Of a stretch of DNA of 64,000 nt, positions 30,484 through 30,583 are shown in pieces (the first letter of the stretch is position 1; each line of letters opens with the position of its first letter). Under the pieces are notes generated by a model. The model made no database searches. It had not been told where the DNA came from and saw nothing but the letters and a program-made list of their open reading frames with translations. Both the position numbers and the translations under genes were made by a program. This stretch comes from a virus. Lineage: Duplodnaviria; Heunggongvirae; Uroviricota; Caudoviricetes. The stretch is from IMG/VR virus record IMGVR_UViG_3300017978_000250, positions 1 to 64,000 of that record, one strand, 5' to 3'.

Positions 30484-30583
30484 TGGTGCCCCCACCAGGA
30501 CTCGAACCTGGACACTGTGGATTATCTATCCACTGCTTTGGTCAGGTATAAGCTGACTTCTTTAACCATTAAGCTATGGGGGC
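30484..30583 (-). tRNA. unusual 100-nt tRNA, apparent anticodon UAU with about 24-nt extra arm
   Basis: Acceptor GCCCCCA/TGGGGGC, perfect anticodon stem GTCAG/CTGAC with loop CTTATAC, extra hairpin GTGGAT-AGATA-ATCCAC, TTCGAGT T-loop, CCA. Confidence 0.5.

Follow-up and report, generated by a model that had tools for sequence, protein, structure and literature searches.

A conserved phage tRNA(UAU) family with two anticodon-type arms and, very probably, two alternative cloverleaves

A 64,000-nt stretch of a tailed-phage genome (hereafter the window, meaning the whole of the DNA analyzed) contains a 100-nt tRNA that combines a UAU anticodon with an additional paired arm, which raises the question of whether this is a real gene and, if so, what its second arm is for. 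The identity of a tRNA and its decoding are normally read from one and the same anticodon, so that synthetases such as IleRS usually fail to charge a tRNA whose anticodon has been changed. A sequence-only reading of the window had delimited this tRNA and had pointed to two further ones that carry leucine anticodons (GAG and CAA) on short variable regions, leaving open whether all three had been misfolded by eye or were genuinely atypical phage tRNAs with identity-switching, suppressor or decoy functions.

The gene lies exactly where it had been placed. R1, a covariance model of the family described below, matches 30484-30583 on the minus strand from end to end with 104.3 bits, and the Rfam model RF00005 matches 30487-30583(-) with 56.3 bits against a gathering score of 29, over model positions 1-71 of 71 and with a 26-nt insertion. 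The RNA has a minimum free energy (MFE) of -37.7 kcal/mol (z = -4.4), which none of 200 shuffles equaled or beat. Read directly on the minus strand, the acceptor, anticodon and T arms are perfect, as had been claimed, and the molecule has a 7-bp acceptor, a 5-bp T stem, a UUCRANY T loop, G18G19 in the D loop, U12-A23, and a discriminator followed by CCA. Its anticodon loop, CUUAUAC, shows the pattern of an AUA decoder, with 7 nt, U33, U34-A35-U36 and a purine at position 37; UAU being a sense (Ile) anticodon, a suppressor function can be set aside. The extra segment is exactly 24 nt long, again as had been read, and contains a perfect hairpin, GUGGA(U)-AGAUA-(A)UCCAC (hairpin 2), which has 6 bp if it is closed by U-A and otherwise 5 bp with the 7-nt loop UAGAUAA. 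The parts of the gene, together with the two leucine-anticodon genes, are listed in Table 1.

Table 1. Coordinates in the window of the 100-nt tRNA gene, its parts and the two tRNA genes with leucine anticodons
Feature	Position	Strand	Remarks
Whole tRNA gene	30484-30583	-	100 nt including encoded CCA; 'two-armed tRNA(UAU)' family; RF00005 and R1
Acceptor 5' strand, GCCCCCA	30577-30583	-	perfect pairing with UGGGGGC at 30488-30494
D-stem 5' strand, GCUU, positions 10-13	30571-30574	-	two possible downstream partner strands
Tandem 24-nt units	30515-30562	-	30539-30562 = AAGAAGUCAGCUUAUACCUGACCA; 30515-30538 = AAGCAGUGGAUAGAUAAUCCACAG
Strand X, AAGA	30559-30562	-	D-stem 3' strand of fold A: 3 bp and a G10.A25 mismatch
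Hairpin 1, GUCAG-CUUAUAC-CUGAC	30541-30557	-	perfect stem; decoding anticodon arm; U33, A37
Anticodon UAU of hairpin 1	30548-30550	-	
Strand Y, AAGC	30535-30538	-	D-stem 3' strand of fold B, 4 bp with GCUU; RF00005 alignment and MFE fold
A substituting for position 26 in fold B	30534	-	
Hairpin 2, GUGGA-UAGAUAA-UCCAC	30517-30533	-	extra (variable) arm in fold A; arm in the anticodon position in fold B
GAU of hairpin 2 loop	30524-30526	-	
A33' of hairpin 2 loop	30527	-	
AGUGU	30512-30516	-	5-nt variable loop in fold B; 3' linker of the extra arm in fold A
T arm, CCAGG-UUCGAGU-CCUGG	30495-30511	-	perfect stem
Discriminator A73 and encoded CCA	30484-30487	-	
tRNA-Leu(GAG)	24381-24457	-	77 nt; 5-nt variable loop GUUCU; ARAGORN; RF00005 62 bits
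tRNA-Leu(CAA)	35437-35514	-	78 nt; 6-nt variable loop AGUUCU; ARAGORN

In each of the two 24-nt units, a D-stem 3' strand and position 26 precede an anticodon-type arm, which is followed by 2 nt; the removal of either unit leaves an exact 76-nt class-I tRNA. The units agree at 11 of 24 positions, and from this layout the gene appears to have originated by tandem duplication of a stretch that runs from the D-stem 3' strand through position 26 and the anticodon arm to positions 44-45. The RNA therefore encodes two overlapping, mutually exclusive cloverleaves, which have in common the acceptor stem, the T arm and the 5' strand of the D stem. In fold A, GCUU pairs with strand X, hairpin 1 (UAU) occupies the anticodon position and hairpin 2 becomes a long variable arm, the variable region of 29 nt with its 5-6-bp stem being of the class II kind, where paired arms of more than 10 nt are found. 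In fold B, GCUU pairs with strand Y, hairpin 2 occupies the anticodon position and hairpin 1 loops out of the D loop; this is the cloverleaf aligned by Rfam, a second complete fold that the sequence-only reading had overlooked. We are highly confident of this structural description, a two-armed tRNA with two alternative cloverleaves. The design has apparently not been described before: as far as our literature searches reach, no natural tRNA is known to form two complete alternative cloverleaves.

At least 139 distinct sequences share the architecture; they are carried in phage tRNA arrays, in three cultured phages and in the genomes of 34 bacterial species. The cultured carriers are Pectobacterium phage PhiM1 (JX290549, 25840-25937), Xanthomonas phage Xoo-sp13 (MN047793, about 47563-47664) and Klebsiella phage KP13-26 (OP617743, about 68207-68308). 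With compensatory changes in every helix, the extra arm included, this recurrence does away with the idea of a fold misjudged by eye and leaves a genuinely atypical phage tRNA with covarying helices. With R1, 82 members score 72-108 bits, clear of ordinary tRNAs at no more than 59 bits, and each phage locus has one family copy. Among the 69 distinct sequences of alignment A3, U33-U34-A35-U36 of hairpin 1, A73 and CCA are invariant and A37 occurs in 68, and the acceptor/T branch is 7/5 in all members. Covariation was found at 7/7 pairs of the acceptor (99.7-100% of cells paired), 5/5 pairs of the hairpin 1 stem, 5/5 pairs of the hairpin 2 stem (98.5-98.8%) and 4/5 pairs of the T arm (99.8-100%), the family score being 0.76-0.77 against 0.10-0.16 for slid controls (0/500 shuffles). 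RNAalifold, run blind, recovered both hairpins, with the D stem absent. The two arms also predict each other: a pattern scan fixing only hairpin 2 returned a hairpin 1 loop YUUAU in 48/48 matches, and one fixing only the D arm and UAU returned hairpin 2 loops that were mostly (U/C)AGAUAA. A few plain class-I tRNA(UAU) genes do occur in phages (L052, L090, L109, L135, L153 and L147). The search for near relatives of the window phage found none among 50,697 GenBank phages, where single tRNAs only were matched, and BLAST with the 100-nt RNA gave partial matches only. The family is large, conserved and carried by phages and mobile elements, and the locus in the window is a functional-looking tRNA gene.

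Against this background, a decaying duplication, a pseudogene or an excised intron-like insert is scarcely credible. The tandem 24-nt repeat would fit such an origin, as would the failure of ARAGORN on the gene, but every helix is preserved by compensation across at least 139 distinct sequences, with both loops nearly invariant. As for an intron, the insert is below the size of group I introns, Rfam intron families gave no match, and the 24 nt inserted form an anticodon-type hairpin in their own right; the role of insert could fall to either repeat, and joining the two loops at equivalent positions would bring together non-complementary stem halves.

The case for two cloverleaves rather than one rests on the two strands that compete for GCUU. 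About 95% of members are able to form both folds. In each of the two D helices, three of the four pairs are changed on both sides, and 70% of cells are paired with X and 89% with Y. Position 13 forms U-A, A-U and C-G pairs with X, and U-A, C-G, G-C and A-U pairs with Y. Position 12 pairs with X as U-A and C-G, and its change from U to C in L230, L233, L237, L238 and L291 is accompanied by an A-to-G change in X and Y alike; in L264, U10 pairs with an A of strand Y, which thus covaries with positions 13, 12 and 10. The spacing of fold B is exactly that of class I, with 1 nt at position 26 in 61/61 sequences and a variable loop of 5 nt in 110 of 139 members. The difference in energy between the folds has a median of -0.6 kcal/mol (range -1.9 to +1.0, n = 61), a near-equality that follows in part from the folds being identical but for a 3-4-bp helix, and the compensatory events in the D stem are few and phylogenetically clustered. 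An anticorrelation between C25 and strand Y, seen in the first 69 sequences (C25 in 8/8 without Y and in 1/61 with Y), was dropped, as it was weakened by the addition of Xanthomonadales-type copies in which X = Y = GAGC.

These observations bear on a reading of the gene as a static, class-II-like tRNA-Ile(UAU), in which fold A alone would matter, the extra arm would bind another factor (a modification enzyme or a phage protein) or tune decoding, for example by limiting AUG misreading, and Y would serve tertiary contacts. Fold A is open to every member, including eight distinct sequences that lack Y, its UAU loop is canonical and invariant, and the 13-22 pair with X covaries. In addition, unmodified UAU confuses AUA with AUG on E. 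coli ribosomes (PMC3575796), and with so poor a discrimination some extra device could help. We nevertheless consider a static tRNA unlikely, since Y outpairs X with the D-stem 5' strand and has compensatory changes of its own, and since neither the exact class-I spacing around hairpin 2 nor the resemblance of its loop to that of tRNA-Ile(GAU), with a sole change at U33, would be explained.

The loop of hairpin 2 is YAGAUAA in 133 of 139 sequences, and the canonical tRNA-Ile(GAU) loops of the same arrays are YUGAUAA. Judged by its letters, the hairpin 2 loop is the anticodon loop of tRNA-Ile(GAU) with U33 turned into A. This A33 is present in 138 of 139 members and was absent from all 560 ordinary tRNAs compared. 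The replacement of a near-universal U33 speaks against a two-in-one decoder, in which both folds would act on the ribosome, reading AUA via UAU and AUC/AUU via GAU. Two complete cloverleaves of canonical geometry would suit such a function, and so would phage PhiM1, in which a family member, located between capsid and tail genes, is the only tRNA. However, canonical Ile(GAU) genes are present in the same arrays, so that a GAU-like arm is not needed for decoding, host tRNA-Ile(GAU) is abundant, and a 24-nt hairpin emerging from the D loop would likely clash at the tRNA elbow; we thus regard two-in-one decoding as improbable.

Strong Ile determinants are the anticodon, A73 and t6A37 (PMC9976931). 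The minor E. coli determinants C4-G69 and C29-G41 (the latter in hairpin 2) are not kept. A73, a D arm without Leu, Ser or Tyr signatures and the Ile-type extra loop together point to Ile identity rather than to an identity switch, and we infer that the 100-nt tRNA brings isoleucine to the rare codon AUA, which accounts for 19% of the Ile codons within the window. The identity switch raised by the sequence-only reading, by which the long arm would lead to charging by LeuRS, SerRS or TyrRS and to recoding of AUA, is accordingly very improbable. It could draw on the class-II outline of fold A, on A73, which is also found in tRNA-Leu and tRNA-Tyr, and on the indifference of E. coli LeuRS to the anticodon and the long arm (PMC9976931), but UAU is not a Leu, Ser, Tyr or Sec anticodon, and the D arm differs from those of the Leu, Ser and Tyr tRNAs in the same arrays. 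Its D arm lacks the Leu signature of U8-G9, a 13.22 purine mismatch, the AAUUGGUA loop and A20a, which is present in every Leu tRNA of the same arrays; A73 in place of G73 and the 7-nt single-stranded linker before the arm argue against Ser, A35 argues against Tyr, and the conserved Ile-type extra loop would be left unexplained.

An isoleucine tRNA with a UAU anticodon meets a difficulty in charging, since UAU, compared with the native anticodon, lowers the kcat/Km of E. coli IleRS 360-fold (PMC3575796). As a typical bacterial IleRS reads G34 or lysidine-34 and reads U34 poorly, we propose fold B as the conformer that is charged. Fold B would be recognized and charged by the host IleRS, A33 would bar this conformer from decoding, and fold A would be the one used by the ribosome on AUA. 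The switch between the cloverleaves would be a swap of the D-stem 3' strand, and with synthetase and ribosome reading different arms, identity would be uncoupled from decoding. We put forward this mechanism, in which hairpin 2 would act as a handle for IleRS, tentatively, as it falls not far short of an even chance; that the molecule is a naturally bistable, two-headed tRNA, offering its GAU-like A33 arm to IleRS and its UAU arm to the ribosome, has about the same chance. Strand Y is missing from about 5% of members, which are confined to fold A (four distinct sequences of the L069/L073/L111/L125 type, plus L103, L150, L132 and L160). Most of them still have an extra loop containing AGAU, that of L160 being unrelated (GGACG). 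Since they cannot place this loop in the anticodon position, the handle mechanism must be incomplete or need a second mode of action.

An arginine parallel was tried as a general proof of a synthetase handle and rejected. Three of 42 tRNA(UCU) genes have long arms and two of these three an ACGAA extra loop; a dedicated scan had ACGAA fixed and hence tested the stems alone. The parallel is real but rare, and the tRNA(UCU) with the ACGAA loop already has the ArgRS determinants A20, C35 and U36, so that a handle is not obviously needed there. Nor was a codon mimic or kissing loop, with AUA of AGAUAA set against the UAU loop, retained as a general rule, because G and A33' are invariant though unneeded for pairing, because the intramolecular contact is sterically implausible, and because the analogous ACGAA loop of tRNA(UCU) has no AGA.

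The decoy function that had also been raised would have the GAU-type loop titrate or mislead a host factor that reads the tRNA-Ile(GAU) loop, for example an anticodon nuclease or another tRNA-targeting defense, and ACGAA might act likewise for tRNA-Arg(ACG). The window phage encodes an RNA ligase of the T4 Rnl1 type, a family that repairs nuclease-cut tRNAs, A33 could render the loop uncleavable or non-decoding, and the small tRNA(UCU) family has its extra loop with no apparent need of a handle. A decoy, however, leaves unexplained why the loop is so strictly tied to a functional UAU arm, long arms being found in 56/59 UAU tRNAs vs 0/14 GAU tRNAs; an Ile-specific anticodon nuclease was not identified in this analysis, and PhiM1 has its single tRNA with no repair genes evident. 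Taken together, these points make a decoy or sponge quite unlikely.

The two tRNAs with leucine anticodons do have short variable regions, as had been read, and with loops of 5 and 6 nt both depart from the long arm that tRNA-Leu is said to possess in every organism and organelle other than animal mitochondria (PMC9976931). The CAA gene is not among the Rfam tRNA matches of the window, and its relatives in L005, L124, L158, L111 and L127 show compensatory stem changes. The two genes and 24 distinct relatives with short arms all have A73, A15-U48, G18G19 and A20a; these are the determinants of E. coli-type LeuRS, and the long variable arm is dispensable for leucylation in E. coli (PMC9976931). 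The short-arm genes are real and conserved, all the Leu D-arm hallmarks being kept and only the long arm being absent. With all E. coli-type LeuRS determinants present, Leu is their likely identity, on an unconventional body, and evidence for a suppressor role or an identity switch was not found for these genes. Conserved tRNA-Leu genes with short arms contradict the textbook long-arm rule outside animal mitochondria.

Software gives the 100-nt gene no conventional structure, and in the window ARAGORN skips it. In relatives of the 100-nt gene, ARAGORN reports a 99-nt 'tRNA-Glu(ctc)' or a shortened 'tRNA-Ile(gat)' of 72-73 nt, and Rfam takes hairpin 2 as the anticodon arm of the 100-nt tRNA. 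The family member is unannotated in phages Xoo-sp13 and KP13-26; the PhiM1 copy carries the tRNAscan-SE annotation tRNA-Ile. Because annotation systematically overlooks or mislabels the family, AUA decoders are undercounted in inventories of phage tRNAs and in analyses of codon usage. If the handle mechanism holds true, separate arms for synthetase and ribosome, with toggling between cloverleaves, would represent a new principle in tRNA biology and would explain how phages and mobile elements supply a TilS-free AUA decoder. Phages would have evolved this arrangement to supply a codon reader which, in ordinary form, the host synthetase would turn away, and the design could serve as a scaffold for genetic-code engineering that joins orthogonal decoding to native charging.

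The usual AUA decoder of bacteria and T4-type phages is tRNAIle2, whose CAU anticodon TilS turns into k2CAU. In decoding it takes the same place as the two-armed family, but it acquires both its Ile identity and its AUA specificity through the host TilS, whereas the family has U34 and would need no TilS. The window contains three CAU tRNAs, one of which lies 7 nt downstream of the 100-nt gene and has an anticodon stem almost identical to hairpin 2. Closer in anticodon are the bacterial tRNA-Ile(UAU), namely Mycoplasma mobile tRNAIle2 and the tilS-bypass suppressors of Bacillus subtilis, which share with the family UAU, A73 and lysidine-free decoding of AUA. Such tRNAs face weak recognition of U34 by IleRS and a risk of misreading AUG, and the solution of M. 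mobile lies in the enzyme (IleRS Arg865) and the ribosome (PMC3575796). They have an ordinary variable loop of 5 nt, whereas in the family the tRNA itself provides an extra loop of the Ile(GAU) type along with a second cloverleaf.

Class II tRNAs (Leu, Ser, bacterial Tyr and Sec) resemble fold A in their paired arm between the anticodon and T arms and in a D stem that is effectively of 3 bp. In contrast to them, the family has the anticodon of a class-I amino acid, its arm is set off by 6-8 nt on the 5' side and 5 nt on the 3' side rather than emerging directly, the 7-nt loop of this arm is invariant in sequence and anticodon-like, and the alternative fold moves the arm to the anticodon position. 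Allo-tRNAs and (8/4) tRNAs, like the family, depart from the canonical tRNA and combine long variable arms with non-Ser anticodons, of which UAU is among the predominant ones, and some occur in phages (PMC5389517). Their acceptor/T branch is 8/4 or 9/3 and their identity of the serine type, whereas the family has a 7/5 branch and A73. An (8/4) tRNA-Ser(UGA)-like gene is found elsewhere in the window, at 35526-35613. Lastly, riboswitches and human mt-tRNA-Lys, whose cloverleaf competes with an extended hairpin, share with the family one strand that has two mutually exclusive partners of similar stability; in the family, unlike in these systems, both folds are complete cloverleaves and both partner strands bear the marks of compensatory evolution.

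In the 100-nt gene the acceptor, anticodon (UAU) and T arms are all perfect, and a 24-nt segment holds another perfect hairpin; the sequence-only reading had described all of these, and they are present in the sequence. The minus-strand RNA reads GCCCCCA UA GCUU AAUGGUUA AAGA A GUCAG-CUUAUAC-CUGAC CA AAGC A in its 5' part and GUGGA-UAGAUAA-UCCAC AGUGU CCAGG-UUCGAGU-CCUGG UGGGGGC A CCA in its 3' part; the arm with the UAU loop is referred to as hairpin 1 and the extra arm as hairpin 2. ARAGORN, for which a conventional structure had been set as the refuting outcome, called nothing at this position, and the RNA folds far better than its shuffles (-37.7 kcal/mol, z = -4.4, 0/200). 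The D-stem 5' strand GCUU has an imperfect partner in the AAGA before hairpin 1 (3 bp and a G.A) and pairs perfectly with the AAGC between the two hairpins. This second pairing, which was not in the fold of the sequence-only reading, is the one chosen by the Rfam alignment and the minimum-energy fold, where hairpin 2 becomes the anticodon arm (GAU) and hairpin 1 a 26-nt D-loop insertion. The gene holds two 24-nt units, identical at 11 of 24 positions and each comprising the 3' strand of a D stem, position 26, an anticodon-type arm and 2 further nt; removal of either leaves an exact 76-nt class-I tRNA.

Relatives were collected with four pattern scans of viral contigs, different parts being left free in each. 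Nine contigs matched with both loops fixed and 47 with only the hairpin-2 loop fixed, the first-hairpin loop of the latter scan being YUUAU(A/U)N, that is anticodon UAU, in 48 of 48 sequences including that of the window. When the fixed parts were the D arm and the UAU loop alone, the second-hairpin loop was (U/C)AGAUAA in most genuine tRNAs and UAGAUGA in one subfamily, and a few ordinary tRNA(UAU) genes with a 5-nt variable loop were also recovered. The fourth scan, with the D stem and its partner strands both unfixed, gives a lower bound only. A covariance model made from 26 seed sequences scored members at 72-108 bits, cleanly apart from other tRNAs (<=59 bits), and found exactly one per locus; at least 139 distinct sequences were collected. 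The cultured carriers are three phages, and 34 bacterial species, mostly Xanthomonadales and Pasteurellaceae, were positive in a scan that took one genome from each species, with identical copies across genera. The Stenotrophomonas copy lies beside an island that carries genes for KfrA, a SEC-C-motif protein and an OLD-family nuclease, and is identical to copies on contigs of Xanthomonas, Thiobacillus and Aerolutibacter. ARAGORN missed the relatives or reported them as a 99-nt 'tRNA-Glu(ctc)' or a truncated 72-73-nt 'tRNA-Ile(gat)'.

Covariation was measured on 69, then 99 distinct sequences. Changes on both sides were found in 7/7 pairs of the acceptor, 5/5 of hairpin 1, 5/5 of hairpin 2 (98.5-98.8% of cells paired) and 4/5 of the T stem, with a covariation score of 0.76-0.77 (0.10-0.16 for slid controls) that was reached by 0 of 500 shuffles. 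RNAalifold without imposed structure returned the same four helices, with compensatory changes in 20 of 21 pairs, and assigned no D stem. Across the family, stem sequences are fully turned over and loops are kept: hairpin 1 has CUUAUAC or CUUAUAA in 131 of 139 sequences (U33-U34-A35-U36 being invariant in the 69-sequence set) and hairpin 2 has CAGAUAA or UAGAUAA in 133 of 139, while A73 and an encoded CCA occur in 69/69 of the first family alignment. That the two 24-nt units represent a decaying duplication is scarcely credible.

Two alternative cloverleaves can be drawn. In fold A the D-stem 5' strand pairs with strand X, which immediately precedes hairpin 1, so that UAU is placed as the anticodon and hairpin 2 forms a long variable arm; in fold B it pairs with strand Y, between the hairpins, with hairpin 2 at the anticodon position and hairpin 1 looping out of the D loop. 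The X and Y helices alike show two-sided changes in 3/4 pairs, with 70% (X) and 89% (Y) of cells paired. Position 13 forms U-A (53), A-U (24) or C-G (11) with X, and U-A (43), C-G (11), G-C (3) or A-U (3) with Y; in Xanthomonadales copies GAGC stands opposite GCUC in X and in Y. Five fetched loci (L230, L233, L237, L238, L291) have C at position 12 (GCCA) together with an A to G change in X, there AGGA or AGGG, and likewise in Y, there AGGC, and a sixth, L264, has A of Y opposite U10. In its spacing fold B matches an ordinary class-I tRNA, with 1 nt, usually A, at position 26 in 61/61 and a 5-nt variable loop in 110/139. Computed energies of the two folds are similar (median difference -0.6 kcal/mol, -1.9 to +1.0, n = 61), a likeness in part to be expected, since only a short helix distinguishes them. 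Fold A alone is open to eight distinct sequences (the L069/L073/L111/L125 type, L103, L150, L132 and L160), which are without Y; AGAU is still in the extra loop of seven. An early impression that C at position 25 is confined to sequences without Y failed once the Xanthomonadales copies were added.

Canonical tRNA-Ile(GAU) genes of the same arrays, two window genes included, have the anticodon loop UUGAUAA or CUGAUAA, and the sole difference of the hairpin-2 loop is U33 to A. That the arm is a decoy for a factor reading Ile(GAU) loops seems decidedly unlikely. Position 33 is U in 555 of 560 ordinary class-I tRNAs and never A, in a parsing that did not assume U33. U33 substitutions impair A-site function, and A33 would stop the GAU-type loop from serving as an anticodon; a two-in-one decoder is very unlikely. 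Reportedly, following work attributed to Nureki et al. in 1994, the strong IleRS identity elements are G34, A35, U36, (t6)A37, A38 and A73. The same elements are listed for bacterial IleRS (PMC9976931). We consider an identity switch highly improbable. A census covered ~570 distinct tRNAs with class-I anticodons, taken from arrays that had not been fetched with the Arg pattern. In it, long variable regions are almost confined to UAU tRNAs (56/59) and occur in 0 of 14 GAU tRNAs; the set is UAU-enriched by fetching, and the contrast with other anticodons of the same arrays holds.

The kcat/Km of E. coli IleRS is 360-fold lower for tRNAIle2 with UAU than with lysidine, an obstacle solved in the enzyme instead in M. 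mobile (PMC3575796). A UAU tRNA would spare the need for TilS but would face poor IleRS recognition. From sequence and computed folds, we tentatively favour a model in which fold B would be the form recognised by IleRS, because it presents a GAU-type loop with canonical spacing from the acceptor end, and fold A the form decoding AUA. This model would account for the association between the extra arm and UAU, the identity of the hairpin-2 loop, the canonical spacing of fold B and the double covariation of the D stem. The Y-less members are not easily explained by it. A static class-II-like Ile tRNA, with the arm serving another partner, appears rather unlikely. AUA accounts for 19% of the Ile codons of window ORFs (12.3 per thousand), so a tRNA reading this codon is of use to the phage.

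The window comes from a large phage genome of 40% G+C for which no close relative was found among 50,697 GenBank phage records, matches being to individual tRNAs only. The T4 Rnl1 family, represented upstream of the array, is known for repair of tRNAs cut by anticodon nucleases. The YrlA-like match and the phrog_850 protein could be a Ro-type RNP pair. The anticodon stem of the neighbouring tRNA(CAU), GUGGA/UCCAU, is nearly identical to the hairpin-2 stem GUGGA/UCCAC, which may reflect local recombination or common origin. The 'tRNA-Pyl' of phage KP13-26 is probably an amber-suppressor-type (CUA) tRNA. The tRNA-like gene with anticodon UGA, skipped by ARAGORN, is of the (8/4) phage tRNA-Ser type (Mukai et al. 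2017).

Features of the window and of loci carrying related tRNAs
Feature	Position	Remarks
Proteins encoded in window		RIIA-type protein, NAMPT, HNH endonucleases, radical-SAM proteins, T4 Rnl1-type RNA ligase
T4 Rnl1-family RNA ligase	20299-21240(-)	PF09511, E = 3.5e-16
tRNA array	24381 to 38883(-)	44 genes, all minus strand (ARAGORN)
Short-arm tRNA-Leu(GAG)	24381-24457	variable region 5 nt
472-aa protein	25110-26528(-)	PHROGs 'RNA-binding protein' phrog_850; Pfam DUF7788 + DUF2828; 11 kb from YrlA-like match
tRNA(CAU)	30399-30476(-)	lies 7 nt downstream of two-armed tRNA
Two-armed tRNA(UAU)	30484-30583(-)	
Rfam tRNA model match	30487-30583(-)	56.3 bits, gathering score 29, E = 3.7e-12
24-nt units	30539-30562; 30515-30538	
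GOLLD RNA, full-length	31568-32033(-)	mid array; RF02032, 208 bits, gathering score 150
tRNA-Lys(CUU)	31898-31970	embedded in GOLLD RNA
Short-arm tRNA-Leu(CAA)	35437-35514	variable region 6 nt
tRNA-like gene, anticodon UGA	35526-35613(-)	8-bp acceptor, 4-bp T stem, long variable arm; Rfam tRNA-Sec model 32 bits, below gathering score 47
Aberrant tRNA-like sequence	36820-36902(-)	83-nt 'tRNA-Leu(gag)', unusual acceptor, without CCA
Y-RNA-like (YrlA) match	37606-37715(-)	31.8 bits, below gathering score 69; T-arm-like and D-arm-like segments
Aberrant tRNA-like sequence	38385-38468(-)	Sec model 25 bits; odd UGGUGUGUG/CACGCACCA closing helix
Two-armed tRNA, Stenotrophomonas sp. S11A1a chromosome	L214:3290-3393	junction of phosphopantetheinyl transferase gene (housekeeping-looking) and island
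Two-armed tRNA, Pectobacterium phage PhiM1		sole tRNA of the phage; annotated 'tRNA-Ile', 98 nt
Two-armed tRNA, Xanthomonas phage Xoo-sp13		unannotated
Two-armed tRNA, Klebsiella phage KP13-26		unannotated
'tRNA-Pyl', phage KP13-26	L166:4544-4618	75 nt in GenBank; same array as two-armed tRNA
tRNA(UCU) with ACGAA arm	L105:3310-3402	
tRNA(UCU) with ACGAA arm	L007:4577-4671	

The observation that two window genes combine Leu anticodons with short variable regions also held. Both otherwise share every feature of the long-arm tRNA-Leu in the same arrays, namely U8-G9, a D stem of 3 bp in which 13.22 is a purine mismatch, a D loop AAUUGG(U/C)A that includes A20a, and also A15/U48 and A73. The fetched arrays contain 24 distinct short-arm Leu tRNAs (CAA, GAG, UAA or UAG), and for the window CAA gene, related genes that show compensatory stem changes are present in five phages. 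In E. coli leucylation the long arm and anticodon are dispensable, and A73, A15-U48, G18G19 and A20a matter (PMC9976931); judged by these rules, whose determinants they contain, the short-arm genes likely keep Leu identity.

Two unrelated tRNA(UCU) genes, at loci L105 and L007, have a short extra arm with ACGAA in its loop, and a dedicated scan, with ACGAA fixed by the pattern, gave six distinct genes of this kind (these two, L168, L178, L186 and L187). tRNA(UCU) reads the rare Arg codon AGA, and ACGAA corresponds to positions 34-38 of tRNA-Arg(ACG), the E. coli loop being CUACGAA. The 3-4 bp stems of these arms covary (GGC/GCC, GUC/GAC, GCC/GGC, GUUC/GAAC). Such genes are rare in the census, already hold the ArgRS determinants A20, C35 and U36 and are without an alternative D strand; their arm is a possible parallel to the UAU extra arm, offered as a lead. 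Two other tRNA-Arg(UCU)-like genes (L170, L180) carry an insertion of ~21-27 nt directly after anticodon-loop position 38, before the stem 3' strand, that looks intron-like.

Our searches of freely readable full texts turned up no account of a tRNA in which the anticodon arm is duplicated, or of a long-arm phage tRNA-Ile(UAU), an earlier description of either being possible in subscription-only literature. In genome papers 'tRNAIle' or 'tRNAIle(UAU)' is listed with no further remark, the only mention in the PhiM1 papers being 'a single tRNAIle'. The nearest described oddities are the allo-tRNAs, whose branches are 8/4 or 9/3, whereas that of the two-armed family is 7/5.
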